From IMG/VR virus record IMGVR_UViG_3300022205_000001, positions 1 to 64,000 of that record: a stretch of DNA of 64,000 nucleotides; one strand, given 5' to 3'. The DNA is from a virus. Lineage: Duplodnaviria; Heunggongvirae; Uroviricota; Caudoviricetes. This document shows, piece after piece, positions 2,057-14,723 of the stretch. Each line of letters opens with the position of its first letter. Within the stretch, counting starts at the first letter, position 1. The notes below the pieces were generated by a model. That model worked only from the letters and a program-made list of their open reading frames with translations, ran no database searches and was not told the DNA's origin. Both the position numbers and the translations under genes were made by a program.

Positions 2057-3226
2057 TTATTCTACTCCTTTTCCATGCCGCAAATCAAGTGCCAAATCCC
2101 TCGCCGCTTTCGCGCCCATGATTTCCATGAAGTTCACGGCTCCATTTGTGCCCTGACCACTACCACTTTGAATTGTCGGAACCACGGCACCCTGGTACTT
2201 AGAAAATGCTTCCGCCCACGATTGTTGAGCCGTTACCCAAGCTTCCAACTTCTGTTGGAGGGCTCCATCCGCTTGCATCACCAATCGACGCTTTGCCGCA
2301 TCACCTTCACCAATCAAAATTTGCTGTTTCTTATACTGTTCGGCCGCTTGTGCTTCCAATTGGGCTACTTCAAGTCTCTGTCTCGCTTCCGTCACTGCTT
2401 GGATCTTCTGGACTTCCTTCTCATATTGCGCTTTCGCAACATCTGCCTTACCAGTCGCTTCCGCGGTCAACTTTCGCTGTTCCGCTTCACGAGTTTGCGC
2501 CATTGCAGTTTGCACCTGCATGGTGATATCCTGCTGACGCTTAAACTGTTCAGTGACTACGGCATCATAATCAATGTCACTGGGAGCAAAGTTCACAATC
2601 CGAATCCCGAATTCACTCAACGCAGATTGCTCTTGACGTTCAGGCTTCCCATCCTTACCAGTAACAATTTCAGCAACAACAACTGAACGGGTTTCCTTAG
2701 AAATAGGATCAACCACCGTTTCAACTTTCTGTGTCGTTCGATACACACCGTTCTCGATTTGATCAGTGATATAACGAATCAACTCGGTCTTTTTCGATGC
2801 CACAGACTCTTCTGACGACATGGTTGGACCGGTCATATAAATGACCTTATCAATGGTCGGCTTCACCAAGCTTCGTTCGATGGCTTCTTGGCTTCCATAC
2901 TTTGTATGCAATGCCGTCAACAACTCAGGCTGCAACGGAAGTTCCAATTGGAACTGTCCCTTCATCACACCCGTTCCCTTATCGTTGAACTGGATCTTGC
3001 TGTTCAGATCAGTGTTTGACATTTTCCGGTAAATCGTCACAGTCCCACCACCTTGCCACTTGATACCTGGCTCGGTGTACCAACTCAATTCTCCACTTGT
3101 GGGATGCTGTACGACCATAATTTCATCGGCATTTACATTTTCAAACGCCTTACCCGACAATGCCATGAACATAAACAACAGGATCACTGCACCAATACCG
3201 GCGACTTTCAAGTGTATCGAAGACAT
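2057..3226 (-). CDS. SPFH/band-7 (prohibitin/HflK-like) membrane protein
   Basis: N-terminal TM helix, SPFH-like core, long Ala/Gln/Glu-rich coiled-coil tail; start set to MSSIHLK Met with AAGGGAAGAAATAAG SD. Confidence 0.65.
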   Translation of the reverse strand: MSSIHLKVAGIGAVILLFMFMALSGKAFENVNADEIMVVQHPTSGELSWYTEPGIKWQGGGTVTIYRKMSNTDLNSKIQFNDKGTGVMKGQFQLELPLQPELLTALHTKYGSQEAIERSLVKPTIDKVIYMTGPTMSSEESVASKKTELIRYITDQIENGVYRTTQKVETVVDPISKETRSVVVAEIVTGKDGKPERQEQSALSEFGIRIVNFAPSDIDYDAVVTEQFKRQQDITMQVQTAMAQTREAEQRKLTAEATGKADVAKAQYEKEVQKIQAVTEARQRLEVAQLEAQAAEQYKKQQILIGEGDAAKRRLVMQADGALQQKLEAWVTAQQSWAEAFSKYQGAVVPTIQSGSGQGTNGAVNFMEIMGAKAARDLALDLRHGKGVE

Positions 3227-3365
3227 CTTATTTCTTCCCTTTCTTGGAAAATGGACGCTCGCCCATGAGTAACGGTGTGATAATCTGCCACACCACATAC
3301 GCCACAACAAATAAACCGACCGCATACTCCATCACCCTCAATATGAGCATAACACTCGCACCTCC

Positions 3366-4826
3366 TTATTGCAGTTCCTCTCGCACCCTCCGACGAATCT
3401 CACTCAACTTATGAGTCACATGGACCCTCCCATCTACAAACACTGTGCGAAGCAACCCTCCTTCAGCTTGAGTATAATCCAATCCATCCGAAAGAACCAA
3501 TCCATTCTCACCACGATCAACACTCAAGAAACCACGAGCCGATTTCTTCAATCCTGGATCAGTCTTCGGGTTCTTTGATACATGCACCTCATTACCATCA
3601 ATGACGCCCGCGGTCGCCTTGATTGCAAATCCAAACGTATCACGAGTCACATACTGATACGTGTAGCTTCCAATACCGAATACGATGTTGGTAGAGGCAA
3701 ATCCCTTCTCTTGCAATCCCTCACAAATCTGTTTAGCTCGCTCAAGGGTAATGGAGTCGCCATAGATCATTCCGATCTTCTCGGACAACTGCTTATACCC
3801 TTTGTTGTTTACCGTTCCCCCAAATGTCTCCCACAACAGAACCGCAGTTCCTTTGTATGCAGGAGAATCCACCGGAGCATCAGGATCACCACAAATGATC
3901 TTCACAGGGTCACCGGAGTCAGGTCGCACCACCACCTTCCCATCACGAGCCTCGATTACAGACTTCAATGAAGGAAGAATATCGGTCAACACTGCCCAAT
4001 AATCCCATGTATCCGACACAATGGATACGATTCCCTTTGGGTAAACTTCGGTAATCATCCGAAGAAATGTTTCCCGCTCACCCTGCTCACCACCGAAACA
4101 CATCACCGAATGCTCAGTAGCAGGAACAGAACCCCCAATGAAATCATCCCCTGCCTTATAAAACTCCTCAAGAAAATCGATAGCAGGAATAGTGTCTGTT
4201 CCGGTAAAACTCAATAGATGGGCTCCACCCGAAACGGTAGCACTCTCAATACTAGCATGTCCTCTCATCGAGAAATCATGCCCCTGCCAATCGACAAACT
4301 CAGGGATATCCGACGTTTCCATTGCATACTTTTGTAGCAACTTCCGATACTCAAATGCAATAGTGGCGGATGTAATCGGATGCCAGAGAACCGTAGACAT
4401 CAACGTTTCAAGGAAATTCGTCAGCCAGAAAAACTCCGGCATTGTGTTCTCAATCGTCAAGAATGGAACACGCATCGGAACCCGGGTACCCTCTTGCAAG
4501 GCCCGAATACGAATCGGAAGATATCCCAAATCATACAACTTCTCAACATGATCCATTGGAACCGCATCCGGTCCTAGTGAAGTATCCAGCCGGCGCTTGT
4601 ACTTTGCTATCACTTCCTCTTTCGGCTTCTTGAAGAAGTTCGCATTGAAATCATCACACAGGTACCGCTGAACAAAATACTGAAGTCCAAAGAATACCAC
4701 ATGATCAACCCCAGGCATTCTCGATCCCCGCGCCGTCATATTGGAGTAGACCACCTCGGTCCCTTTCGGATACTGACGGCGATGATCAGTTTTATACATA
4801 TCTGATAAATGAATAGCACTATACAT
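3366..4826 (-). CDS. nadV: nicotinamide phosphoribosyltransferase (NAMPT)
   Basis: full-length similarity by eye to NAMPT (N-terminal DxYKxxHxxQYP block, GGxxxxS/T regions); size 486 aa as expected. Confidence 0.85.
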   Translation of the reverse strand: MYSAIHLSDMYKTDHRRQYPKGTEVVYSNMTARGSRMPGVDHVVFFGLQYFVQRYLCDDFNANFFKKPKEEVIAKYKRRLDTSLGPDAVPMDHVEKLYDLGYLPIRIRALQEGTRVPMRVPFLTIENTMPEFFWLTNFLETLMSTVLWHPITSATIAFEYRKLLQKYAMETSDIPEFVDWQGHDFSMRGHASIESATVSGGAHLLSFTGTDTIPAIDFLEEFYKAGDDFIGGSVPATEHSVMCFGGEQGERETFLRMITEVYPKGIVSIVSDTWDYWAVLTDILPSLKSVIEARDGKVVVRPDSGDPVKIICGDPDAPVDSPAYKGTAVLLWETFGGTVNNKGYKQLSEKIGMIYGDSITLERAKQICEGLQEKGFASTNIVFGIGSYTYQYVTRDTFGFAIKATAGVIDGNEVHVSKNPKTDPGLKKSARGFLSVDRGENGLVLSDGLDYTQAEGGLLRTVFVDGRVHVTHKLSEIRRRVREELQ

Positions 4827-4917
4827 TATTAGTTGACCTTTCTAAATAGTCGGCAGCCATTCGTAATCTAATTGGGCACTCCCCCAAAAGACCAATTCCC
4901 CTATTACACCTTCATTC

Positions 4918-5751
4918 CTATACAGCCCTCCGATTCATGGTGTCTTGCAACAACGGAGTCACGCAATACCTTCCCTTATAGGTGAAAATCTCGTCTATCA
5001 GTCCATCAAACACCTTCAACCCTTTCGAGAAAATCCCATGCGTTACCATCAATACAATTTTTTTCGGTTTATGATTCTTCCGAATTTCCTTTGCAATTTC
5101 AATAAACGTTCTACCTCCATCACAAATATCATCAACAATCACGCAAACATGTCCATCCAATGAGAATGCGGCATGTACCGTTGTTCCTGTGATTTCACCT
5201 GTCCCTGGGTCTCTTCGTTTACTACACTCAACCACCCCACGATGAAATGTGCTTGGAATATGCTTTGCCAAATCAAACGTTTTTTTAGACGCCCCGGCAT
5301 CCGGCGAAATCAACACCGCATGATCTTCATCTTCCAACACATTCATCAACATTGAACGAAAAATCTGTGTTTGTGTGACAGGAGAACAATTCTTGAGAAG
5401 TGCCGTCAGAACCGGAGAATGTGGATCATAGACCACCACTTTCTCGGCATTCAATCCATTGACCAAATCACACATCACACGCAACGAAAAACACTCGCCA
5501 GGGACGGCGACCCGATCTTGGCGGGAGAATGGAAAGTAAGGAATAACCAACTCACGCAATCGAATACCTGCTTCTTTGAGGGCATTGCAATATAAAAGCA
5601 ACTCTACTATGTCCTCGTTTTTCTGGAATTCCCACGTCACCTTGATACCATGGCTCAAGGCATTCCGAAATTCTTGATCAGTATTCAAACGAATATGCAT
5701 TTCACCGGCGGGAAAATTGAACGTTGAGTGGTCTACAAAAGACTGAATCAT
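4918..5751 (-). CDS. prs: ribose-phosphate pyrophosphokinase (PRPP synthetase)
   Basis: IPYFPFSRQDR, VVYDPH, ISPDAGA and VDDICDGGRT blocks match Prs PRPP/divalent-cation motifs; start at Met with GGAGGGG SD; own promoter copy at 5771-5811. Confidence 0.8.
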   Translation of the reverse strand: MIQSFVDHSTFNFPAGEMHIRLNTDQEFRNALSHGIKVTWEFQKNEDIVELLLYCNALKEAGIRLRELVIPYFPFSRQDRVAVPGECFSLRVMCDLVNGLNAEKVVVYDPHSPVLTALLKNCSPVTQTQIFRSMLMNVLEDEDHAVLISPDAGASKKTFDLAKHIPSTFHRGVVECSKRRDPGTGEITGTTVHAAFSLDGHVCVIVDDICDGGRTFIEIAKEIRKNHKPKKIVLMVTHGIFSKGLKVFDGLIDEIFTYKGRYCVTPLLQDTMNRRAV

Positions 5752-5770
5752 ACACCCCTCCATAACAACG

Positions 5771-6090: not shown

Positions 6091-6660
6091 TCATTCATTC
6101 CCCACCATACCTTTCGGCTGTTCATCATGCTCCAAGGTCTTCTTGAAATACTGCTGGGCAGCAACGTGATAAATCACGATACCCTCAGGCTTCATGAAAC
6201 CTGGAGATGCCACACTCCCATACTCTCGCAAATCCTCAACACACTTCTCCGCCACACCTGTTTCAAAAAGCCCTGTGTACAATACCGGGACCACATGGCA
6301 GCAAGCGGGGCGAACCGCAGCATCGCTCCATATTGAAGTGTTGAACAAAGAGAATCGCTTCTCTTTCAATCCATACTTCCGCTGAATACCGGCACCCCAC
6401 CATTCTCCATAATGACGACCGATCCCAAGACCCTTGATCAACTCTTCTTTGTGTTCAAGTGCCCAACGACCGAACCCAAAGTTATCACTCGACAAAGATT
6501 CATCGTCAGGAGTCACGAGCCAACGGCTCCGGCTCCCCACATAAAACTTCAAATCCTCAGTGACCACAATCTGTCCATTAGTGCCATCGATTTTCTCAGT
6601 AATCACACACTGTCTCGACAACCGCGGAATTTTTCTAAATGTTTCAAATTCAAGACTCAT
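6091..6660 (-). CDS. RNA ligase, Rnl2-family nucleotidyltransferase domain only (189 aa)
   Basis: motif I EKIDGTN (T4 Rnl2 EKIHGTN), GEWWGAGIQ (Rnl2 GEFAGPGIQ), PEGIVIY (motif IV EGYV); no C-terminal domain. Confidence 0.65.
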   Translation of the reverse strand: MSLEFETFRKIPRLSRQCVITEKIDGTNGQIVVTEDLKFYVGSRSRWLVTPDDESLSSDNFGFGRWALEHKEELIKGLGIGRHYGEWWGAGIQRKYGLKEKRFSLFNTSIWSDAAVRPACCHVVPVLYTGLFETGVAEKCVEDLREYGSVASPGFMKPEGIVIYHVAAQQYFKKTLEHDEQPKGMVGNE

Positions 6661-7012
6661 GATACGGTACCCATCCTTCCTGTGTTTGCATTTCCACTTT
6701 CAAATTCTCAGGCGCCATTGCGTCTTCAACTCGCTCCTCGACTGTCTTCACTCCACGCAACTTTGCCGCTTTCGCTTTCGCCCACTTCTGAAACTCTGGT
6801 GTTGCACCCATACGCCGAAACGCGGCTCGCTTGTTCTCCAATTGCGAACGATATTCCCGCGATTCTCCCCGCGCACCTGACGGAGGATGAATAATCCTCA
6901 CCCCTGATTCTGTTTTGTTTTGATTCTGTCCACCCTTCCCACCAGACCGAAAGGTCTGAATAAGACAATCACTAATAGTGACTGAGAAGAGAGGTGTTCG
7001 TTGAGGTGTCAT
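6650..7012 (-). CDS. GGQ-motif peptidyl-tRNA hydrolase, ArfB/PrfH-like release-factor domain protein
   Basis: SGGKGGQNQNKTESGVRIIH matches RF-1/ArfB GGQ loop; EYRSQLENKRAA matches ArfB QEYRSQELNREAA; basic C-terminal tail; stop overlaps ligase start by 11 nt. Confidence 0.7.
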   Translation of the reverse strand: MTPQRTPLFSVTISDCLIQTFRSGGKGGQNQNKTESGVRIIHPPSGARGESREYRSQLENKRAAFRRMGATPEFQKWAKAKAAKLRGVKTVEERVEDAMAPENLKVEMQTQEGWVPYHES

Positions 7013-7185
7013 ACTGAGGTAAACCCCTATTCGCTCGCATATTATCTTGCTGATTCTTCCAGCGTTCTACATTAAAAGGAATAGTGAGTGTTTTTGGTAA
7101 CCGTGTCCCTCTAAGGGTCACTTCAATGTAGGGAACTATCGCAGGATCATGTAACCGTGAAGATGTATCTGTTTTCATAATAAGT

Positions 7186-7474
7186 GTGAGGTGGAGGGGA
7201 TTCCAACCCCCTCAACGTTCGTCCGGCGTCCGATTATTCTGCCACAGGGCTCAATCTGCTTGCAATCAGATCTCAACGCCACCGGGAGGATTGACTACCT
7301 CCATGCTTCCGTCTACTGGTCGTGTAATAGCTACCAGAAGCATCGAGCTTGATCACCAGGGGTTCCTAATGATCTCCTTCGGCATTATCTCCGCCTTTCT
7401 ACTTGTTCTTTCCCCGGTCCCACGGGTACTCAGCTTTCTCCCTGTAGAATGAGAGAAATTCAGCCACACCTCAC
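7186..7474 (-). ncRNA. candidate structured RNA with tRNA-like T-arm and acceptor end (tmRNA-like?)
   Basis: no credible minus-strand ORF in this 290-nt span; 3' end reads GGGGG-UUGGAAU-CCCCU (T-arm) then CACCUCAC, complementary to 5' GUGAGGUG; CGGACGC upstream of T-arm as in tmRNA; internal long hairpins. Confidence 0.3.
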
Positions 7475-7479
7475 TTTTC

Positions 7480-7716
7480 CTATTCTAAGTCTCCTAAACC
7501 TGGGTTCACAAAATGCACCAATTCTCTCGGCACTGGGTATTCCCAAAACCCATTGACATCCAATTCCCCATACCCATACTCAATCGTGTCTGCTATTGAA
7601 GTAGTCACGCCAACTTTCTCACCGCGGAGAAATTTATGGATGCCGATTCGTTCGGCTCTCAGCATGGCATTCTCGGCTCGCAAATCTTTCAGTTCTTGCT
7701 GCTCTTGTTCTGTCAT
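7480..7716 (-). CDS. hypothetical protein
   Basis: ORF on dominant strand. Confidence 0.45.
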   Translation of the reverse strand: MTEQEQQELKDLRAENAMLRAERIGIHKFLRGEKVGVTTSIADTIEYGYGELDVNGFWEYPVPRELVHFVNPGLGDLE

Positions 7717-7756
7717 GATGTAAGATTATACTCCTTTCTACGCCCAATGTCAAGAA

Positions 7757-8317
7757 CTATTTTATCAACTCAGCCTTTGGAATGATGCCAGGTCCGTATG
7801 GATCATGAATATCAATGGTAAACCCATTCATGGACGGAATACCTATTCCAGGCAACACCGTATCCCAAGCCTCGCGGCGAGCTTCCCACTCTTCCTCTGT
7901 CACATCCTCAAGAGGATCGGTATTGTCCCAATACCCATACTCAGACACACCAGGCATCTTCAAAAACTTTTCAAACCATTCCCCCCGTTCAGTATACACG
8001 ATACCCAGAAACTTGTCCTCATACGGGAACACAACAAGCTGGAAATCCGTATCAACGACAGTGTTCCGCAGACCTGTCTTTTTAATTTCACGACGGAGTT
8101 CCCACCACAACGATTCCGCACGAGAGAGTTTATTTATCCCCTCTTCATCCTTCTCTTCGGGGTTCTTACATTCCGACAGAACTATCTGCATAAACTTTTT
8201 CTTCACCTCATAGGCATCCTTCAGCCAATGTTCATCATGATACTGACGAACAAGGCGCAGCACTTCCTTGAGGTCGGAGGTTGCGATACTCACTCCATAA
8301 TAAATCTTCGTGCTCAT
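7757..8317 (-). CDS. hypothetical protein (186 aa)
   Basis: ORF; ATGA start/stop overlap with upstream gene. Confidence 0.5.
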   Translation of the reverse strand: MSTKIYYGVSIATSDLKEVLRLVRQYHDEHWLKDAYEVKKKFMQIVLSECKNPEEKDEEGINKLSRAESLWWELRREIKKTGLRNTVVDTDFQLVVFPYEDKFLGIVYTERGEWFEKFLKMPGVSEYGYWDNTDPLEDVTEEEWEARREAWDTVLPGIGIPSMNGFTIDIHDPYGPGIIPKAELIK

Positions 8318-9108
8318 GCAATACCCCCGAATCGATCATTGTTTCGTCGCTTTGCCTCCAACAAGAATAACAACACATCCGATACCTCATACTCCTCAAT
8401 CTGCTCAATCCTGACCCCTCGTGAAGCACCTTTTCGAGGATGCAAGAACCACAACGTCACTCCAAGCTTAGGGGTATCACTAATGAACACGGACCCATCA
8501 GCATTGCAGGTTGGACACGTCTTTGGAAGTCCCATCCGTTTCAAACGGGCTTCAGTCAAAATCCAACGATTGATTGCATCATGTCCCAAACCACGGCGAT
8601 GCCGCTCAGAAGCGTTCACTTCCTCCGCGGTTGGCACATATCCCTCAGGCTTCCCACGAGTGAAGTCACCCAATCTACCTGCTGCAACCAGCGCCTCCAC
8701 TTCATCCTGAGTAATCTTATCGTTCCAATGAATGCCCTCAGAATTCATGTGAGGATAAAATGAATTTACCACCTCTTGTGCATCGGGGTGATAACCGTTT
8801 CCACCACAAGAAGGGCATTCTTCTGAATCTCTATTGATATGGAAATAGAAATTCACGCACTCATTCAATTCATCCAACGCCCACGGTCCAAACGCTTTCC
8901 ACGTTTCATGGATTACAGAACTTCTCCAACCATTCTCTTTGTTACCAGAATCCATATAGTCCTCACCTGGACCCCAATAGACATACTCCGGGTTATACTT
9001 AAGAGCTTCCAGTTGCCAGGGGTACGCACCCAATTTACTGGCTTCTTCACGATCACGAGCATCATTTTCATCATATGTTCTCATTTTTCTACCCCCGTTC
9101 AAATTCAC
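8314..9108 (-). CDS. hypothetical protein with two CxxC-x-G zinc-knuckle pairs
   Basis: CPSCGGNG and CPTCNADG motifs; 264 aa ORF. Confidence 0.5.
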   Translation of the reverse strand: MNLNGGRKMRTYDENDARDREEASKLGAYPWQLEALKYNPEYVYWGPGEDYMDSGNKENGWRSSVIHETWKAFGPWALDELNECVNFYFHINRDSEECPSCGGNGYHPDAQEVVNSFYPHMNSEGIHWNDKITQDEVEALVAAGRLGDFTRGKPEGYVPTAEEVNASERHRRGLGHDAINRWILTEARLKRMGLPKTCPTCNADGSVFISDTPKLGVTLWFLHPRKGASRGVRIEQIEEYEVSDVLLFLLEAKRRNNDRFGGIA

Positions 9109-9433
9109 TCAATGCCAAAGGCAGTCCCTTCAACAACCTTGCAGACTTCACACCAGGTTCTACAGCAAATGCCGTCATTTCAAAATCCACATCCGGCTCA
9201 AAAAATGGCACGACATGAAGATGTTTACCCAGCGCAACTCGTGCGAACGTCCGTAAAGCTTTTTCATCTTGTACAGACAACCAACACAAGTAATTTGATT
9301 GTCGGTGCCATTGTCTAAAGATTACAGGATATGCACAGGCAAATTCCGCCAAGGCATGTTGACTCTGAACCCCCTGGTACCCAGGTGTCATGTCCCGACG
9401 AGTAACCACATATAAATGCTTACACTTTTTCAT
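9089..9433 (-). CDS. peptidyl-tRNA hydrolase, PTH2 family-like
   Basis: KHLYVVTRRDMTPGYQGVQSQHAL vs archaeal/human Pth2 KMVVVIRNDLxMGKGKxAAQxxHA, W..Q..K.VV block, D..E.TAFAVEP vs DAGxTQ..PGT.TxxAIGP; start set to internal Met forming ATGA overlap with upstream gene. Confidence 0.55.
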   Translation of the reverse strand: MKKCKHLYVVTRRDMTPGYQGVQSQHALAEFACAYPVIFRQWHRQSNYLCWLSVQDEKALRTFARVALGKHLHVVPFFEPDVDFEMTAFAVEPGVKSARLLKGLPLALSEFERG

Positions 9434-9807
9434 GATACTTTCAACCACTCCACAATTTCCCCCACCCAATTATACAACCTCTGGTGGTCTACGACCTCTG
9501 TTGAAAGTGAGTCATTCGATTCACGTTTCATTACAAGGACCATTTCTTCCTCTTCAAACACAACAATGAGCGCATAGGCATCCTCCATTGGCTTGAAGAA
9601 GTACAGCGAGACTCCGTTGCCATCACTTTCACGAAGAATGCGCGATGGCATGAGATTTTGGTTCCCAAGTGTAAACAATACTTTCGCTAGGAGCGAACTA
9701 TCCCCTCTCCACAATGCAATAGTTCGTTTCCACAACACCTGCCAATTCAACAATTTCTCCATCATGGTCGTGTAATCCTCAATGTGAGAGATGAATTCGT
9801 TCCCCAC
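9430..9807 (-). CDS. hypothetical protein
   Basis: ORF. Confidence 0.45.
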   Translation of the reverse strand: MGNEFISHIEDYTTMMEKLLNWQVLWKRTIALWRGDSSLLAKVLFTLGNQNLMPSRILRESDGNGVSLYFFKPMEDAYALIVVFEEEEMVLVMKRESNDSLSTEVVDHQRLYNWVGEIVEWLKVS

Positions 9808-9959
9808 TCTTTCGAGACTTCCGCCGCCTCAAGAGCTTCCTGCTTCGTCATAGGACGGCAAGCACCCGTGTTGTCGCATACCTTATAAGGTGCTACTGGC
9901 ACACATGCAGCCGTGACCAGAATCAATAGACACACGATCATACTCTTATACATGATCAT
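9762..9959 (-). CDS. small putative lipoprotein
   Basis: hydrophobic N-terminus ending ...LVTAAC (lipobox-like). Confidence 0.35.
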   Translation of the reverse strand: MIMYKSMIVCLLILVTAACVPVAPYKVCDNTGACRPMTKQEALEAAEVSKEWGTNSSLTLRITRP

Positions 9960-10878
9960 TCTCCTTTGTCCAATTCACAGTTTTCAACAACCCTTCGACC
10001 AATGACACCTTCGGACTCCACTTTACATTATCATGTATCTTTTGCGATGATAACAGACTTCGCATTTGCTCACCTGGTTTGGCCTGAGTATACACAGGTT
10101 CACACTCCACTCCAATAGTCTGCGCCAAAAGAGCATGTAGACTCTTGATTGTCGTTCCCTTCCCTGTTCCAACATTGTAAGGACCTGGGACCGGGCATCG
10201 TTCAACCACTGCGGCAATCGCATCTACTACATCACTCACATACACAAAATCGCGCACCTGCTCACCAGTGCCATAGATTGTTGTTTGAATGCCGTTGAGT
10301 AGTTGATTGATAAAAATGGCAATGACCCCGGCCTCACCATGTGGATCTTGTCTAGGTCCGTAGACATTCGCAAACCGCAATGACACAACAGGCATACCAC
10401 ACCGCGAATAATACGTACCGTATTGTTCCATGCAATATTTGCTGACCCCATAAGGGGAGGCAGGAAGGATAGGATGGAACTCTTCCATTCCAGTTTTTGA
10501 TAACGGTTCGGAATAAATGGCTCCACCGGAGGATGCCAACACCACTTGTTTACAGCCAAACAAATGTGCCAACCGCAAGACATTAACTGTCCCAAGAATA
10601 TTCGTATAGGCATCATGATGTGGATCTTTTACCGACTCCCTCACACTCACTTGGGCCGCCAAATGAATCACCACATCAGGGCGCCGACAGAGAAATACCT
10701 GGTGCAACCGGGTTTCATCACAGATATCCACATAGTCCACATACACACCTGTGGGGATGTTTTTAAAATTCCCACTGGTCATATTGTCCACCACAGTGAC
10801 CTCGTGTCCCTCGCGCACAAAATACTCGGCCACATGACTCCCAATAAAACCTGCTCCACCTGTTACGAGTACTTTCAT
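9946..10878 (-). CDS. NAD-dependent epimerase/dehydratase (SDR family, GalE/RmlB-like)
   Basis: N-terminal VLVTGGAGFIGSHV Rossmann motif, YxxxK-type SDR architecture, 310 aa. Confidence 0.85.
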   Translation of the reverse strand: MKVLVTGGAGFIGSHVAEYFVREGHEVTVVDNMTSGNFKNIPTGVYVDYVDICDETRLHQVFLCRRPDVVIHLAAQVSVRESVKDPHHDAYTNILGTVNVLRLAHLFGCKQVVLASSGGAIYSEPLSKTGMEEFHPILPASPYGVSKYCMEQYGTYYSRCGMPVVSLRFANVYGPRQDPHGEAGVIAIFINQLLNGIQTTIYGTGEQVRDFVYVSDVVDAIAAVVERCPVPGPYNVGTGKGTTIKSLHALLAQTIGVECEPVYTQAKPGEQMRSLLSSQKIHDNVKWSPKVSLVEGLLKTVNWTKENDHV

Positions 10879-11102
10879 CGTTCATCATCCTTTGTTGGAA
10901 GATCCCCCACTTGTAACAATTGCGACCCCTCTTGTGGGTAGGGTAAGAGAGAACAGCTATCCGTTTCATACCCCCGTCTATCTAGGAACTCACGCACACT
11001 GGCGCAGTCTTGCCACGAGTCATAGGGACCAACCATCACTGGCCACTCTTGTCCAGACACCAGCACACCAAAATAGAATGCTATGATTGGTAGAGAAATC
11101 AT
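10875..11102 (-). CDS. hypothetical protein
   Basis: ORF. Confidence 0.4.
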   Translation of the reverse strand: MISLPIIAFYFGVLVSGQEWPVMVGPYDSWQDCASVREFLDRRGYETDSCSLLPYPQEGSQLLQVGDLPTKDDER

Positions 11103-11113
11103 CCTGTTCCCTC

Positions 11114-11383
11114 TTACCAGGTCCCTTTCCAGGATTCATTGACAAGAAATTTACGTACCGCATTTGGTGTGAGAACCTCAGCACAGGTATCGGGGTTATT
11201 TACCTCGATGGTATCCTGACCGAATGCTCGACCTACGAGCCGAGCCAGGCGCATTCGTTCCTCTTCATTCTTTTCAATAGTGCGATAGGAACTCTTTTCC
11301 CACACATTCACCACGAATTCATCATACACTTGTAGCGCCTGGCGGGTTCGGTCAAATTTCTTACTCATAACTCGTCCGTTCAT
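11114..11383 (-). CDS. hypothetical protein
   Basis: ORF. Confidence 0.45.
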   Translation of the reverse strand: MNGRVMSKKFDRTRQALQVYDEFVVNVWEKSSYRTIEKNEEERMRLARLVGRAFGQDTIEVNNPDTCAEVLTPNAVRKFLVNESWKGTW

Positions 11384-11420
11384 ATGATTCGGCAGTTTTT
11401 GCGTATATGGTACAACCGAT

Positions 11421-11672
11421 TCACTTGATCCTCACCGCGGAATTCATCACGTCCGCGGCATACACGTCTCCTAATTCCCCGTTCGGGCAAATGGGGGTGA
11501 CAACATCACAGAACCACCGAGCATACGGCTTGCGGTCGTCCGCCTGGTACTTCTTCAGGACATACCAGGTCCACGTTCCCGCCTGCCACACCTCATACGC
11601 ATTTTCCCGCTTGACCGTTTTACCACAAGGATTCTTCATAGCCATGATCAACTCCTTTTCTGTTCTTGTCAC
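11421..11672 (-). CDS. hypothetical protein
   Basis: ORF. Confidence 0.45.
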   Translation of the reverse strand: MTRTEKELIMAMKNPCGKTVKRENAYEVWQAGTWTWYVLKKYQADDRKPYARWFCDVVTPICPNGELGDVYAADVMNSAVRIK

Positions 11673-11676
11673 GCGG

Positions 11677-12102
11677 TTATTTCACCACCTGATAGGGGCT
11701 ATCCCACTTGCCGATATTCACACTCAGATACCACCCCACGTCAAAATAATCACTCCGAATATCAGAATTATCGTGGTTCCCCTTGTTCATTACTGTGATG
11801 ATCGTCTTTAGGACTTCCAGGGCTTTACCACTGAAATGCTCATGAAACCAGTAATCATTCACTTGAATATGGGTGGGTGGATTCTTTCGCAATTCCGCGG
11901 CACGTTCAAGTGACCGAACATCATGCGCCTGGCTCATGGTCTCGATCATGTTTTGAATAAAATCGATGGGTCCCTGCTTGATATTGATACACAGGGTTGA
12001 ATGATGATGCACACCGAGGGAATACTTCAAACCGGAACCTTTCAGAACCGTTTTCAATTCCGCCGCAATTTCCTTCTTCTTATCTTGACTCATGTAGGCC
12101 AT
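11677..12102 (-). CDS. hypothetical protein
   Basis: start moved to MAYMSQD Met (AAGGGAG SD) downstream of promoter copy 12130-12170. Confidence 0.5.
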   Translation of the reverse strand: MAYMSQDKKKEIAAELKTVLKGSGLKYSLGVHHHSTLCINIKQGPIDFIQNMIETMSQAHDVRSLERAAELRKNPPTHIQVNDYWFHEHFSGKALEVLKTIITVMNKGNHDNSDIRSDYFDVGWYLSVNIGKWDSPYQVVK

Positions 12103-12129
12103 GTGAATCTCCCTTGTTGATCGTTCATT

Positions 12130-12170
12130 CACTATGATATAAGTCTATCATAATAGGGTAGGGATGTCAA
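12130..12170 (-). promoter_or_regulatory. promoter class 1
   Basis: TTGACA-17-TAGACT; palindrome TATGATA-N6-TATCATA. Confidence 0.55.
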
Positions 12171-12199
12171 CTCCTTCTAAGTGCTTGATTTTCAAGCAC

Positions 12200-12523
12200 T
12201 TATCGCCATCCAAATTCATCGGTCACCTGGTAAAACTGATCCTGGATCTCCGAAAAGTAATCATCCCAGGTCTCACCATGTTCTTCCGTACCCGGAACGG
12301 ACGGCTTATCAGGCATCTGATGCCCAAGAGTTTCTAACACAATCTGTTCTACTTCTTTTCCATCATGTGACTGAAGAAACGCTTTTCCGCCACTATCAAT
12401 ATCCGTGTCACGATACATTTCCATGATCGCCACCAAGGAGTCCCGATTCAGGGTCTTCTGATCATAGCGTTCAATCACTTGTTGCTCAAACAAGGTAAAA
12501 CCTTGATTCCATCCCATGGTCAA
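12200..12523 (-). CDS. hypothetical acidic protein
   Basis: ORF. Confidence 0.5.
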   Translation of the reverse strand: MTMGWNQGFTLFEQQVIERYDQKTLNRDSLVAIMEMYRDTDIDSGGKAFLQSHDGKEVEQIVLETLGHQMPDKPSVPGTEEHGETWDDYFSEIQDQFYQVTDEFGWR

Positions 12524-12544
12524 CTCCTTCTAAGTGCTTGATTT

Positions 12545-12850
12545 TCAAGCAACTATGGCATCCCGCAAATCAGCAATATACGGCGCCAAGCTACCAGGTC
12601 TACGGATAAACTCAACGCCAATGGTCCTATCCTGCACCCACTGCACCTTTGCAAGATCCACCAGCAACGTCTCACGAGACGTTACTATCGCCAGGCGAAT
12701 ATACGTACCTACAACGGCAGGCAAATCCAACACCACCTTCGCCCCACTCTCATGAATATCCAGCAACGTACCCTCACCCATTTCATTGGTGCTGGTCCGA
12801 TACAATACCGGGGCCATTTTCAACACTCGTTCTCTGACTCGATTTTTCAT
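12545..12850 (-). CDS. hypothetical protein (weak PilZ-like RxxxR ... DxxxSG pattern)
   Basis: start at MKNRVRER with AGGGAGGG SD downstream of promoter copy 12866-12906; PilZ resemblance is weak. Confidence 0.45.
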   Translation of the reverse strand: MKNRVRERVLKMAPVLYRTSTNEMGEGTLLDIHESGAKVVLDLPAVVGTYIRLAIVTSRETLLVDLAKVQWVQDRTIGVEFIRRPGSLAPYIADLRDAIVA

Positions 12851-12865
12851 GCTATTGCCCTCCCT

Positions 12866-12906
12866 CACTATGATATAAGTCTATCATAGGGGTCGGAATG
12901 TGTCAA
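12866..12906 (-). promoter_or_regulatory. promoter class 1
   Basis: same 23-mer CACTATGATATAAGTCTATCATA (+ strand) and TTGACA. Confidence 0.55.
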
Positions 12907-12934
12907 GTCCCATAAGTGCTTGATTTATTTGAGT

Positions 12935-13270
12935 TTACCAGGATACCCGTATCACATAATGACCAGGCGGAACCGATAGGGTTGAGGTACACAGTGATTC
13001 AAGTAAACTATACAACCCCACGGCATGAGGCTGCTTACCGTTCACCCATTGAATCCATACATCCCATTTGAATTGGTCAAACTTATCCATCTTACTTCTC
13101 GGTATTGAAGGTAGCCGTTGCACATCCAGCACCACATGGTCGGTATCATTCGACCATCCAAACTGACTCACACAATCAAACTTCCCGTACCACTCAGGCC
13201 ATGTAAAATTCACAATCTCATTCAATTCCCGAAACGTCAGAACATTGAATGGCATTTGCTTGATTTCCAT
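12935..13270 (-). CDS. hypothetical protein
   Basis: ORF. Confidence 0.45.
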   Translation of the reverse strand: MEIKQMPFNVLTFRELNEIVNFTWPEWYGKFDCVSQFGWSNDTDHVVLDVQRLPSIPRSKMDKFDQFKWDVWIQWVNGKQPHAVGLYSLLESLCTSTLSVPPGHYVIRVSW

Positions 13271-13272
13271 GT

Positions 13273-13620
13273 CTAGTTCCTCTCACTATGCTGAAACCAC
13301 CACACCATCGTAAACACAATTTCTTCCCATGCTAACCAGAACAACTCCCGAAATACATCAGCCCGTTCTAAGGTGTCTTTTCCCTTTGCCCATGTTTTCC
13401 TCGCATAGGCCTGTAACCACGCGGCCTCTTCGATCATCCGCAGACCATCAGGCACTTGAGGAAACTCACGCTGCAACCGGGCCCCTTCTTCTTTCATCTG
13501 AATGGATCTGTGATACCATCGAGCAGCATCACGCTTCAGCTTTTTCCCCTCATACTGCAACACCTGGACACGATACGCTCTCCGAATCAATTTCCGAATC
13601 ATAATTCCTCCACCATCCAA
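13273..13620 (-). CDS. hypothetical protein
   Basis: ORF. Confidence 0.45.
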   Translation of the reverse strand: MDGGGIMIRKLIRRAYRVQVLQYEGKKLKRDAARWYHRSIQMKEEGARLQREFPQVPDGLRMIEEAAWLQAYARKTWAKGKDTLERADVFRELFWLAWEEIVFTMVWWFQHSERN

Positions 13621-13859
13621 TCTTCAAGCTTTACCGGCAGTAGAACATTATACCCAGGTTCCATGTGAGTATAGTACCGATCCACCATCCTGGCCCACGT
13701 TGTCAAGTTCGGTTTCTTGAGATAGACTTTCCCTTTCTTTGATAAGTTTGACTTTGTGTATCCTGCGTACCCACTATCATTCTTGAATGCCGACTGGATA
13801 GACCGAGCCGGTATGAAGTACAGCCCCGTAGGAATATGCTTAATTCGATACACAGTCAT
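13599..13859 (-). CDS. hypothetical protein
   Basis: ORF. Confidence 0.4.
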   Translation of the reverse strand: MTVYRIKHIPTGLYFIPARSIQSAFKNDSGYAGYTKSNLSKKGKVYLKKPNLTTWARMVDRYYTHMEPGYNVLLPVKLEDWMVEEL

Positions 13860-13861
13860 GG

Positions 13862-14179
13862 TTACCTCGTTGCTGAGTGAAGGACAATCCAGCCATGTGA
13901 ATATTCAGAAGGTTCACCATCCTGAATCCATTCAATCCTGCACCGCATAGCAGGAGCCGAGAACTTTCTCCAATTCACAGTGCGACCTGTGATTTTTATA
14001 GAAACCGGCAACGTCGGAATAAGTTCCAAGCCGGTGGTCAAACGAAAGGGTGCGCCTTGATAGGATTCATCCACATACGCATCGCCGGGTTGTAGCACTC
14101 CACCAATCCTACTCACCCATCCATCGGGGAGTACGTAGTCACCTAATGTCGGCGTGAAATGTTGTTCCCTATTAGTCAT
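13862..14179 (-). CDS. hypothetical protein
   Basis: ORF. Confidence 0.45.
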   Translation of the reverse strand: MTNREQHFTPTLGDYVLPDGWVSRIGGVLQPGDAYVDESYQGAPFRLTTGLELIPTLPVSIKITGRTVNWRKFSAPAMRCRIEWIQDGEPSEYSHGWIVLHSATR

Positions 14180-14511
14180 TATGACCTCCGATTCTCGGCC
14201 TGTGCCATTGCCGTCTTTGCCGCAGCATACGCCGCGGTCATTTTCTCAGCAAATACAGTCGGCCCGACCCCGTTACCATCAAATGCATCCAAGAACAACC
14301 GTACCGCCTCTTTGAGGGCGGGAGCCGCTTCCAACAGGTATGCCGTTGCAACATCGGCGTCCCGTTCTTCTACCGTCGCATATGTCATAGAAGCAATGAG
14401 GCTCCGTTCATCTGAATCCAGTCTCCAGGCCGGAATACCTTGAACCGTGGTATCTTTTGTCACTGTGAATTGTTCCATGATCAACCCCCTTAGAATCCAA
14501 ACATTGTTCAC
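14179..14511 (-). CDS. hypothetical protein
   Basis: ORF. Confidence 0.45.
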   Translation of the reverse strand: MNNVWILRGLIMEQFTVTKDTTVQGIPAWRLDSDERSLIASMTYATVEERDADVATAYLLEAAPALKEAVRLFLDAFDGNGVGPTVFAEKMTAAYAAAKTAMAQAENRRS

Positions 14512-14723
14512 CGGCGCAGTGAATAGGACAAGACCTCTTCCTCAAGTTTCCGCCCACTTTCAATATCCTGGATTTCATCGGACGTATAACCGCACATGGA
14601 ACATTTCAACAGACCTGTGTTAGGGATCGATCCCGTCCACGAGAAATGCATATGCCGACAAACTTCTTCTCGGACTTCAGGATACAGAGCCAACCGCTTT
14701 TTTATGGGTGTTTTTTCGTCCAT
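14508..14723 (-). CDS. small zinc-ribbon protein
   Basis: CxxH...CxxC pattern; start at internal Met with AGAAAGGGAGAAACAAG SD, downstream of promoter copy 14742-14782. Confidence 0.45.
   Translation of the reverse strand: MDEKTPIKKRLALYPEVREEVCRHMHFSWTGSIPNTGLLKCSMCGYTSDEIQDIESGRKLEEEVLSYSLRR

Follow-up and report, generated by a model that had tools for sequence, protein, structure and literature searches.

Comparative analysis confirms that the minus strand of positions 7186–7474 of the window, by which we mean the whole 64,000-nt stretch of phage DNA analyzed here, is a real, highly structured, non-coding RNA gene. The RNA (~289 nt; as delimited with covariance models and 15 homologues, it starts with the 5′ strand and stops with the 3′ strand of its closing helix P1) appears to belong to a previously undescribed family of non-coding RNAs of ~285–295 nt from uncultured T4-like phages. 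Our best reading, to which we assign a probability of about 0.5 jointly with membership in such a family, is that of a new phage RNA, stand-alone and stable, that would act in trans, with a function that we can only infer. The initial annotation of this region favored a tmRNA-like architecture and named, as a fallback, a different kind of stable RNA; we judge the fallback to be right.

Covariation and the predicted fold

The covariance models R1 and R2 match positions 7177–7483 of the window at 350.8 and 320.4 bits, respectively, and IMG/VR, JGI, ENA and Logan contigs together yielded 15 distinct homologues (the window counted in), which fall into two clades, a divergent one (clade 2: L136, L144, and L153) and another one that includes the window. 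A consensus structure of 15 helices and two pseudoknots fits all 15 sequences: 95.9% of the 1225 cells pair, compared with 38–44% in slid-partner controls, and compensatory changes are found at 60 of the 83 pairs, compared with 13–21 pairs in the slid controls. Furthermore, none of 500 shuffles reaches the observed pairing and compensation; in an RNAalifold analysis of only two sequences that are ~70% identical, 21 of 78 pairs are already compensatory; and the minimum free energy fold of the window RNA closes with the end helix (z = −3.1 versus shuffles). Folding and covariation, both proposed as checks in the initial annotation, thus came out positive. The region combines a compensated base-paired architecture with the lack of a conserved ORF, as is generic for structured non-coding RNAs, and its abundant G-U pairs can be read on the minus strand only, which fixes the strand of the RNA as minus.

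The 5′ strand of P1, GUGAGGUG (7467–7474; minus strand, as for all elements of the RNA), forms 8 pairs, 6 of them compensatory, with the 3′ strand CACCUCAC (7186–7193). Adjoining the latter, with no spacer, is the 3′ hairpin P14 (7194–7213), which has a 6-bp stem (3 of the 6 pairs compensatory) and an 8-nt loop, GUUGGAAU (7200–7207), and reads GAGGGG-GUUGGAAU-CCCCUC from 7213 to 7194. The coordinates originally given for the paired ends and this hairpin, there called a T-arm, are exact, and both helices are 100% paired in the 15 homologues. The covariation shows a fold in which P1 would stack on P14 and be followed by a 5′ domain that consists of P2 (3 bp; 7433–7464; 100% paired) around the hairpin P3 (7438–7455; 92% paired), whose loop AUUCUACA (7443–7450) is invariant within the window's clade. 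The next element is the small hairpin P4 (7413–7426; 90% paired, three of four pairs compensatory), with invariant flanks, AGUA on the 5′ side and GAAA on the 3′ side, that might resemble a bulged-G/loop-E module.

No part of the RNA is more conserved than the single-stranded segment GAAAGAACAAGUAGAAA (7396–7412), which the consensus structure leaves unpaired: its first 14 nt, GAAAGMACAAGUAG (where M is one A/C position), are the same in all 15 sequences, clade 2 included, and represent a candidate interaction surface. Beyond it, a long interrupted helix, P5-P6-P7 (5′ strands at 7380–7395, 3′ strands at 7225–7244; 98, 98, and 93% paired, respectively, with 10 of 12 pairs compensatory), is predicted to open onto a junction of four hairpins; the 3′ strands of this helix include CGGACGCC, which reads CGAACACC in most relatives. 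The four hairpins are P8 (7351–7374; 6/6 pairs compensatory), P9 (7303–7343; 9 bp with a large apical loop, 97.7% paired, 7/9 compensatory), P10 (7285–7302; 96% paired, 3/5 compensatory), with the conserved loop UAGUCAAU, and P11 (7245–7284; 98.9% paired) around the hairpin P12 (7253–7272; 86.7% paired), the loop of which, AUUGCAAG (7259–7266), contains the palindrome UUGCAA. Across the alignment, many junction nucleotides are invariant though unpaired.

Two loop-loop pseudoknots shown by covariation would dock the P3 and P14 loops side by side on the apical loop of P9 and clamp the molecule into a compact body. The first, PK-A, joins UCUAC of the P3 loop (7444–7448) to GUAGA of the P9 loop (7312–7316); it is 100% paired (n = 15), with four of the five pairs compensatory, and its strands swap fully among the homologues (UCUAC/GUAGA, UCUGU/ACAGA, CCUAC/GUAGG, and, in the second clade, CUUGC/GCAAG). 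The second, PK-B, joins UGG of the P14 loop (7203–7205) to CCA of the P9 loop (7317–7319) and is likewise 100% paired, as C:G in 11 sequences and G:C in 4; the P14 loop follows the pattern N-YUGSAA-N′ (UUGGAA, CUGGAA, UUGCAA, UUGGCA), in which S covaries with its partner in the P9 loop. The supposed T-loop of the initial annotation therefore appears to be a kissing loop that contacts the apical loop of the central hairpin P9. Several other candidates were set aside: a pairing of the P4 loop with the P8 loop, which would have formed a third pseudoknot, was not significant; the P3 loop could instead pair with the invariant strand, but as this involves 6–7 nt in clade 1 and only 4 nt in clade 2, the pairing is at best putative; antisense targets of the invariant strand inside the window showed no excess over chance; and likenesses to rRNA noticed by eye (the sarcin-ricin loop, the 16S 3′ end, and 23S GGAAAGA) are either not conserved or too short.

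Distribution, genomic setting and proposed role

So far, the family is known from a single lineage of uncultured T4-like phages. No true member was recovered in two pattern scans of 185,579 species-representative cellular genomes, GenBank phages yielded no homologue (blastn against 50,697 phage records gave no DNA match), and the nearest RF-1 proteins from cultured phages share <60% identity. Pattern matches that proved to be due to chance, and not members, comprise L101, L102, L110, L113, L114, seven MAG contigs (L172–L178), and 36 of the 37 matches to CTCATTCTACAGGG. None of the 4227 families of Rfam 15 matches the window at the gathering threshold, and permissive cut-offs produced nothing relevant at E ≤ 10 for the window or E ≤ 5 for five homologous loci. 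Leaving aside the candidate list of the IMG/VR structured-RNA survey (PMC10690425), we did not find the RNA described in the literature. About half of the close relatives carry the RNA and the others lack it, in the manner of an accessory gene.

The RNA sits in an accessory island that encodes an ArfB-like protein, an RNA ligase, PRPP synthetase (PRS), and nicotinamide phosphoribosyltransferase (NAMPT), beside a tRNA array; in L109, 21 tRNA genes follow NAMPT. The conserved gene order is orf126-orf186-orf78-RNA-(orf68)-RF1-Rnl-orf110-PRS-NAMPT. The corresponding genes in the window are a 68-codon gene between the RNA and the RF-1 gene (6972–7178), which is kept in five relatives; the ArfB-like gene (6650–7012, minus strand; PF00472, 1.6e-16; PHROG 3122) for a 120-aa RF-1 (GGQ) domain protein that matches release-factor GGQ domains in PDB and is a bare GGQ domain; a small RNA ligase gene (6091–6660, minus strand; PF09414), which shares 11 nt with the end of the RF-1 gene; and the genes for PRS (4918–5763, minus strand) and NAMPT (3366–4826, minus strand), which are the commonest genes 1–2 kb downstream of the RNA in the relatives. 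The initial annotation had placed the element directly upstream of the ArfB-like gene; this holds in L108 and L112, where the RNA abuts the RF-1-domain gene, but in the window the 68-codon gene intervenes. The translation-related character of the neighborhood that it pointed out (ArfB-like gene, RNA ligase, tRNA array) is borne out.

Obligate coupling to the ArfB-like gene was first suspected because the RNA shifts to the other side of this gene in L125/L126, where PRS and NAMPT are absent within 2.2 kb. Such coupling is ruled out by clade 2, whose three phages have the RNA with neither the ArfB-like gene nor the RNA ligase nearby; in one clade 2 contig (L002 and L144), the RF-1 gene is tens of kb away. 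No partner protein consistently co-occurs with the RNA, given that the ArfB-like protein and Rnl are absent nearby in clade 2 and PRS/NAMPT in L125. We infer the function from the neighborhood alone and, within one phage lineage, the shared synteny may simply be inherited.

In 9 of the 15 members (L001, L108, L109, L111, L112, L117, L118, L120, and L122), a near-consensus TTGACA-17-TATACT/TATAAT is followed by 7 nt and then by the first G of P1, the putative +1; the pattern shows what is predicted to be a strong sigma-70 promoter that sets the start at the first base of P1 in most members. At the same place, directly upstream of the RNA, the window has a weak promoter-like site, TTGTGA-18-TAGAAT (7482–7511, minus strand), and further upstream, ahead of a 78-codon gene, a perfect consensus promoter, TTGACA-17-TATAAT (7725–7753, minus strand; 12/12 matches), which could drive the RNA too. 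No good promoter was found ahead of the RNA in clade 2, L115, and L125; without a promoter of its own, the RNA must belong to a longer transcript there, and a cis-acting role fits these members equally well. After P1, we did not find a clean intrinsic terminator, the 3′ flank being merely AU-rich, and the next gene begins 5–45 nt past P1. Its identity depends on the phage, and at least four unrelated genes occur in this position.

Given the unrelated downstream genes and the accessory-like pattern of presence and absence, we consider the RNA to be an independent gene rather than a leader. We propose that it would be made early, either as its own transcript or by being cut from an early polycistronic one, would accumulate as a stable, end-protected species, and would act in trans on a protein or RNA partner via the exposed GAAAGMACAAGUAG strand and the GUAG-rich loops. 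The genes of the island would keep translation and the NAD supply going under host attack; given the location of the RNA within such an island of translation and NAD maintenance, its most likely role would be that of a scaffold or a decoy in this contest.

The same neighborhood could also be read in terms of cis regulation: as a leader or riboswitch-like element at the 5′ end of the early operon, the RNA would sense a metabolite (e.g., NAD, NMN, or PRPP) or a protein and control read-through into, or translation of, the small ORFs, RF-1, Rnl, PRS, and NAMPT. The RNA is always located upstream of the gene run and on the same strand, with PRS and NAMPT within 1–2 kb in 13 of the 15 loci; the start of the operon promoter falls exactly at P1 in nine loci, with no convincing terminator before the next gene; a closing helix such as P1 and numerous invariant junction nucleotides are typical of aptamers; and the two possible partners of the P3 loop in clade 1 hint at a switch. 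We nevertheless regard this reading as unlikely. The diversity of the genes immediately downstream speaks against it, as do the L125/L126 arrangement, the lack of any conserved terminator/antiterminator or Shine-Dalgarno-sequestering hairpin that we could see, the absence of the RNA from 27 of 30 related PRS loci and from several RF-1-Rnl-PRS-NAMPT loci, and the lack of an Rfam riboswitch match; moreover, to our knowledge, ~290 nt exceeds the size of any riboswitch aptamer. An operon-level effect of the RNA on PRS-NAMPT is possible.

Another reading, which we consider rather improbable, would make the RNA the founding member of a new class of ornate phage RNA that is either active in translation or catalytic or self-assembling. 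In its translational version, the RNA would have the shape of a giant tRNA, with acceptor-, D-, anticodon-, and T-like arms in order and a 190-nt insertion, and might dock on ribosomes or on translation or RNA-repair factors during infection. In the other version, it would toggle between two alternative pseudoknots, in which the P3 loop pairs with that of P9 or with the invariant strand GUAGAA.

A catalytic RNA as such, for instance one that processes itself from the early transcript, or an RNA that assembles into a multimer through the P12 loop is quite doubtful. Invariant unpaired junction bases together with two tertiary pseudoknots are found in ribozymes and large ornate RNAs, the promoterless members must be freed from a longer transcript, and the P12 loop is palindromic in 15 of 15 sequences (UUGCAA in 13, CCGG in L001, and UGCA in L118). 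In addition, the location close to phage tRNA genes recalls the setting reported for GOLLD and ROOL, and other large phage-associated RNAs are reported to form RNA-only multimers. However, no known ribozyme or ornate-RNA model matches, no signature of a cleavage site was found, the palindromes of the variant loops are only 4 nt long and could be due to chance (by our estimate, ~0.1), and the known cage-forming RNAs are far larger than 290 nt.

Resemblance to tmRNA and tRNA, and coding potential

In a tmRNA-like or giant tRNA-like reading, which builds on the architecture initially proposed, P1 and P14 would mimic the acceptor and T arms; RNase P would process the RNA, CCA would be added and charged with an amino acid, and the product would enter stalled ribosomes alongside the ArfB-like factor. 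The resemblance extends beyond the spacer-free stacking of the end helix on the 3′ hairpin: P1 is followed by a 2-nt UG linker and GCW, recalling U8-R9-G10-C11; the helix order P1, P2/P3, P4, [P5-P13], P14 parallels the cloverleaf order acceptor, D, anticodon, variable, T, with a 190-nt "variable arm"; the base after P1 is mostly A; the ArfB-like gene, RNA ligase, and tRNA array are nearby; and the tRNA region of T4 contains tRNA-like stable RNAs.

This reading nonetheless appears to be largely refuted already by the sequence, and we consider it very improbable. ARAGORN detected no tRNA or tmRNA in the window, nor did it report one at the position of the RNA in any of 12 homologous loci, and the Rfam tmRNA and tRNA models are silent in the window even at E ≤ 10. 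Instead of the 5-bp T-stem with a 7-nt loop on an acceptor stem that had been described, the stack consists of 8 + 6 bp in all members, not 7 + 5 (12 bp in all), and the loop is the 8-nt kissing loop, which starts with CU rather than UU in 3 of 15 sequences (CUGGAA), always has G or C at the position of the TΨC C, and forms 3–4 covarying Watson-Crick pairs with a distant loop. The G3:U70 wobble in the acceptor stem of tmRNA is its alanine identity element; in the present RNA, the third pair of P1 (alignment columns 12/325) is G-C in 14 of 15 sequences and A-U in one, and never G-U. No CCA is encoded past P1, where the flanks read ACU, UUU, AUU, AAA, etc., although CCA can be added post-transcriptionally. 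Cloverleaf marks are absent as well: there is no U33 in the P4 loop (AAGGGAC or UGCACCU), no GG D-loop, and no TΨC loop.

The sole short frame (GCA/GAA…UAA/UAG, 7 codons) overlaps P5/P6; as a candidate tag frame (GCA/GAA-CAA-GUA-GAA-…-UAA), it was rejected because its first-position changes represent base-pair covariation (RRR in the window, WWR in L001), and it is also shifted by a 1-nt insertion in L125. The initial annotation had itself failed to find a tag frame or a G3-U70 pair, and both are absent across the family too. The sequence echoes of E. coli tmRNA that it noted do not hold up either: CGGACGC reads CGAACAC in most relatives and is part of covarying helix strands, and GGCWGA is located after the end helix, not within it. 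Finally, three phages possess the RNA with no ArfB-like gene nearby.

The idea that there is no RNA gene at all, and that the region instead codes for protein (through the 88-codon ORF of the plus strand or the short ORFs of the minus strand) or acts at the DNA level, has a negligible chance of being correct: plus-strand ORFs of 88–101 codons are indeed open in 9 of 13 homologues, but they lie in differing frames, have no more than 40 residues in common, and are interrupted in L109, L111, L115, and L125, the variable columns lack 3-base periodicity (69/64/66), the neighboring genes are all on the minus strand, and neither coding nor duplex DNA can explain 60 compensatory pairs and minus-only G-U pairs. 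The stretch, previously described as ORF-free, has only 35- and 38-codon ORFs on the gene (minus) strand, but an 88-codon ORF (7186–7452) on the plus strand; no conserved protein-coding ORF was found in the relatives, where each of the three sense frames contains 2–11 stops.

Significance and comparison with known systems

Intricate tertiary folds proven by covariation are rare among large RNAs, and most of these are ribozymes, riboswitches, or RNP cores. The present family stands out because 60 compensatory pairs and two loop-loop pseudoknots emerge from 15 sequences only, and its setting is among phage genes that would counter an attack on translation and the NAD supply. Provided that its members act in trans, the family would represent a novel RNA participant in the conflict between phage and host or in ribosome/tRNA maintenance. 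The size of the RNA favors structure determination, and the pseudoknots are readily testable by mutation and rescue.

GOLLD and ROOL are orphan, intricately folded, pseudoknotted RNAs of phages and prophages that are typically encoded near tRNA genes. The RNA described here shares the tRNA neighborhood, its island abutting the 21-tRNA array in L109, and differs in that no Rfam model matches it and in its length of ~290 nt compared with roughly 580–800 nt.

With respect to gene context only, there is a parallel to the PrfH-RtcB2 system, which frees and repairs ribosomes damaged by ribotoxins (PMC9304027, PMC6514570): here, too, a GGQ release-factor-domain gene overlaps an RNA-ligase gene (6091–7012). 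In contrast to the phage island, PrfH-RtcB2 has no RNA component; the ligase families differ, the phage protein is a bare 120-aa GGQ domain, and the RNA also occurs without the RF-1/ligase gene pair.

Y RNAs, such as YrlA of the Ro/RtcB RNA-repair operons, are likewise structured, with a tRNA-like module and paired ends, and are encoded beside an RNA ligase in an RNA-repair or translation-rescue cluster. The Ro protein, together with a tRNA-like partner, also occurs in some phages (PMC7824862). The RNA described here is three times longer than YrlA, and the ligase is of the ATP-dependent Rnl type (PF09414), not RtcB; no Ro/TROVE domain was detected among 30 window ORFs scanned against Pfam, and no Rfam Y-RNA model matched the window or five homologous loci.

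The likeness to tmRNA (SsrA) consists in a stable RNA of a few hundred nucleotides with paired ends, a hairpin stacked on the end helix, and a long helix that leads into a domain rich in hairpins and pseudoknots; tmRNA, too, is sometimes encoded by phages near tRNA arrays and RF-1-domain genes. Here, however, the pseudoknots are loop-loop contacts and not H-type knots around an ORF. A phage tmRNA was found in L056.

Among T4-type phages, the RNAs rnaC and rnaD (species 1 and 2) of T4 come to mind, as stable non-coding RNAs from a similar tRNA-region neighborhood that combine an acceptor-like closing helix with an adjacent 3′ hairpin. Homology to them was considered and rejected, since an unfiltered search of the T4 tRNA region with model R2 gave only noise (≤7.5 bits), with no real match to either RNA, and the blastn search of the 50,697 phage records was negative. 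T4 rnaC has a canonical T-arm (CCGGGUUCGAAUCCCGG) and is 139 nt long, and rnaD is 119 nt long, whereas the phage RNA described here has twice that length, and the loop of its 3′ hairpin is a kissing loop. An end module that combines an acceptor-like helix with a hairpin need not, as this RNA illustrates, imply tRNA or tmRNA ancestry.

A conserved, compactly folded RNA

Read on the minus strand, which also carries all the neighboring genes, the element at 7186-7474 begins with GUGAGGUG (7474-7467), complementary to CACCUCAC (7193-7186) at its far end, and the hairpin GAGGGG-GUUGGAAU-CCCCUC (7213-7194) adjoins the 3' strand of this end helix with zero spacer. The initial annotation had described this layout accurately, and folding of 7180-7480 bears it out, the minimum free energy structure being closed by the end helix (-108.6 kcal/mol, z = -3.1).

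A syntenic homolog, ~70% identical over the entire element (L001), was found via IMG/VR relatives of the neighboring RF-1-domain gene. L108, L109, L111, and L112 came from one DNA-pattern scan of JGI/ENA metagenomes, L115, L117-L122, and L125/L126 from exact look-ups of RF-1 homologs, and a divergent second clade (L136/L137, L144, and L153) from a looser pattern and from a search seeded with PRPP synthetase; no true member emerged when 185,579 species-representative genomes were scanned twice with patterns. RNAalifold, applied to two sequences only, predicted 78 pairs and showed compensatory double changes at 21. The full structure, 15 helices and the pseudoknots PK-A and PK-B, was tested on alignment A8 of 15 distinct sequences, the window included. 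Standard pairing occurs in 95.9% of 1225 cells (38-44% with the 3' partners slid by 1-3 columns) and compensatory changes in 60 of 83 pairs (13-21 in the slid controls), with none of 500 shuffles matching these values; fitting the alignment to a covariance model biases such figures toward the helices of the model, but both pseudoknots lie outside it and are still 100% paired. Comparison with homologs, a check suggested in the initial annotation, thus supports the structure. Frequent G-U pairs make sense solely on the minus strand, which is therefore the RNA strand.

In window numbering, on the minus strand, the 8-bp end helix P1 (7474-7467/7193-7186) is followed by P2 (7464-7462/7435-7433), which surrounds the P3 hairpin (7455-7438; loop AUUCUACA), by the P4 hairpin (7426-7413), with invariant AGUA and GAAA on either side, and by a single strand (7412-7396), GAAAGMACAAGUAG, constant in all members except for one A/C position. 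The long interrupted helix P5-P6-P7 (7395-7380/7244-7225) leads to a multi-helix junction with the hairpins P8 (7374-7351), P9 (7343-7303), which has a large apical loop, P10 (7302-7285), and P11/P12 (7284-7245). The small, weakly supported P13 (7223-7214) and the 3' hairpin P14 (7213-7194), stacked on P1, complete the fold. PK-A pairs UCUAC of the P3 loop (7448-7444) with GUAGA of the P9 apical loop (7316-7312); four of its five pairs are compensatory, with switches to UCUGU/ACAGA in L118, CCUAC/GUAGG in L125, and CUUGC/GCAAG in the second clade. PK-B pairs UGG of the P14 loop (7205-7203) with CCA (7319-7317) of the P9 loop, immediately 5' of the PK-A partner, as C:G in 11 sequences and G:C in four. 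Given that both pseudoknots engage the same P9 loop, the two terminal hairpins are docked next to each other on a single hub, and a compact particle is expected. The tetranucleotide GUAG occurs 88 times, about four times the 21 expected, and each RNA of the window's clade contains 6-7 copies; in that clade the P3 loop is also complementary to the invariant strand over 6-7 nt and might form an alternative pseudoknot with it.

ARAGORN predicted neither tRNA nor tmRNA in the whole 64-kb window, and Rfam 15 (4227 families) gave no match in the window at gathering thresholds, no relevant match around the region at E<=10, and none in five homologous loci at E<=5, so that the tools proposed in the initial annotation do not recognize a tmRNA or tRNA here. 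Searches of 50,697 GenBank phage records with blastn and megablast were likewise negative, and the RNA is undescribed in the literature searched, a comparison that leaves aside the candidates listed by the IMG/VR survey of structured RNAs (PMC10690425), whose screen the RNA may have escaped because only about four to five IMG/VR contigs carry it (those behind L001, L136, L137, L144, and L153). With no Rfam family, GenBank phage match, or published description found, we consider it an RNA of a new kind; that the region encodes a real, new structured RNA that is not tmRNA is, in our assessment, almost certain.

Expression and genomic setting

The RNA has its own promoter at the end helix in most members: in nine, a near-consensus promoter (TTGACA, 17 nt, then TATACT, TATAAT, TAACAT, or TATGTT) precedes the initial G of P1 by 7 nt. 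At the equivalent place in the window is a weaker site, TTGTGA-18-TAGAAT (7511-7482, minus); a perfect 12/12 sigma-70 consensus, TTGACA-17-TATAAT (7753-7725, minus), lies upstream of the 78-codon gene, one gene before the RNA. Promoters of this type suggest a host with standard sigma-70 and T4-style early promoters. The phage is T4-like (UvsX, gp41-type helicase, family-B polymerase, ribonucleotide reductase) and uncultured, and the closest RF-1 proteins of GenBank phages are <60% identical. The 3' flank of the RNA is AU-rich, with a U-tract in some members only and no clean terminator.

Gene order is constant throughout the window's clade: orf126, orf186, orf78, the RNA, orf68 or another small gene, the RF-1-domain (ArfB-like) gene, RNA ligase, orf110, PRPP synthetase, and nicotinamide phosphoribosyltransferase (NAMPT). 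In L125/L126 the RNA lies directly downstream of the RF-1 gene, and ligase, PRPP synthetase, and NAMPT are absent; in the second clade, which has no RF-1 or ligase gene nearby, two other genes separate it from PRPP synthetase and NAMPT; and the 176-kb contig behind L002 and L144 has its RF-1 gene at a distance of tens of kb from the RNA. No single protein is an obligate partner among the loci compared. Because gene order shifts and the RNA is missing from many close relatives that have the same island, it is an accessory gene of a variable island.

Several other features of the island were recorded. A conserved 126-aa protein at its upstream edge (9089-9469, minus; 53-66% identity in relatives) has no counterpart in Pfam or the PDB; it matches PHROG 1866 and, at a weak level, also PHROG 3668 ('hydrolase'). 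Downstream of NAMPT, the window encodes a Band_7/SPFH-domain protein (2057-3325, minus); in L125, where PRPP synthetase and NAMPT are missing, the first annotated gene after the RNA also encodes such a protein (4456-5280). L117 has an additional 126-aa ORF (4650-5030), weakly similar to LAGLIDADG homing endonucleases, that separates PRPP synthetase from NAMPT. In L109, a cluster of 21 tRNA genes (7999-14655) starts 1.2 kb downstream of NAMPT; since the window has no tRNA in 64 kb and ends ~3.3 kb beyond NAMPT, a corresponding array may be situated immediately beyond its end.

Proposed function and alternatives

The paired and stacked ends, the accessory-gene-like presence and absence, and the variable downstream genes lead us to infer a stable stand-alone RNA that would act in trans via its invariant exposed strand and its GUAG-rich loops; the probable role would be that of a scaffold or decoy in the contest over translation and counter-defense. 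We assign this package of structured RNA and trans role a probability of about 0.5; action in trans, taken by itself, is a tentative proposal, somewhat short of even odds. In the second clade, L115, and L125, no obvious promoter precedes the RNA, which there must belong to a longer early transcript; a cis-acting operon leader or riboswitch, set against the variable genes downstream, is nonetheless unlikely. All members have a palindromic P12 loop, which may be a dimerization site; a ribozyme or self-assembling RNA appears more doubtful still.

A tmRNA- or tRNA-like ribosome entrant, a form of the tmRNA-like reading initially raised, is very improbable. The supposed T-loop is instead the kissing loop of PK-B, which across the family has 8 nt, N-YUGSAA-N' (variants CUGGAA and UUGCAA), on a 6-bp stem. 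The stack is 8+6 bp, in contrast to 7+5 bp in tmRNA and tRNA; the third P1 pair is G-C or A-U, and in no member the G-U of tmRNA (G3:U70); and no CCA is encoded after P1. CGGACGC, taken as an echo of E. coli tmRNA, is window-specific and part of covarying helix strands. The sole short frame of the single-stranded region (GCA/GAA ... UAA/UAG, 7 codons) was rejected as a tag: it overlaps P5/P6, its first positions differ by base-pair covariation (the window reads Arg-Arg-Arg, L001 Trp-Trp-Arg), and a 1-nt insertion shifts it in L125. What is left of the likeness is the helix order and the UG linker after P1, reminiscent of a cloverleaf whose variable arm spans 190 nt; descent from tRNA is supported by no conserved tRNA nucleotide. 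The stable RNAs C and D of T4 do possess a canonical T-arm, and they show no similarity to this family. In the phage contig L056, a tmRNA (4416-4807) whose tag would be 27 residues long is predicted within a tRNA array, ~1.1 kb downstream of an RF-1-domain gene; thus, genuine phage tmRNAs occur in such neighborhoods and are detected by tools that miss the RNA of 7186-7474. In two further phage contigs, L015 (5127-5204) and L024 (4278-4356), ARAGORN reports tRNAs with a CUA anticodon (labeled tRNA-Pyl) that follow RF-1-domain genes at a distance of 1-2 kb, possibly amber suppressors linked to a release-factor-like gene.

A coding or DNA element can be practically dismissed, given that the plus-strand ORF antisense to the RNA (7186-7452, 88 codons) is open in nine of 13 relatives (89-101 codons) in shifting frames, is broken in four, and variable columns lack codon periodicity (69/64/66). 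The description of the region as ORF-free holds for the minus strand, with just 35- and 38-codon ORFs, and fails for the plus strand, where this ORF is probably a by-product of the purine-rich composition of the RNA. It could mislead gene callers: a 145-aa gene is called just downstream of the RNA in Logan contig L115, and in no other.

Relation to known phage and bacterial systems

Phages are known to carry backups for RNA repair and NAD synthesis (PMC7824862), and the proteins of this island plausibly sustain translation and the NAD supply against attack by the host. The adjacent NAMPT and PRPP synthetase genes (3366-5763, minus) form a phage NAD-salvage pair, and a 781-aa protein (40403-42748) with cytidylyltransferase-like (NMNAT-type) and zeta-toxin/AAA_33 kinase-like domains might, judging from these domains, complete the pathway. 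The RF-1 (GGQ) gene and the small PF09414 RNA-ligase gene (6091-7012, minus) share an 11-nt overlap, and their synteny extends to >10 related phages. The bacterial PrfH-RtcB2 ribosome rescue-and-repair module (PMC9304027, PMC6514570) likewise combines a peptide-release domain with an RNA ligase, whereas the phage pair has a ligase of a different family and a bare 120-aa GGQ domain.
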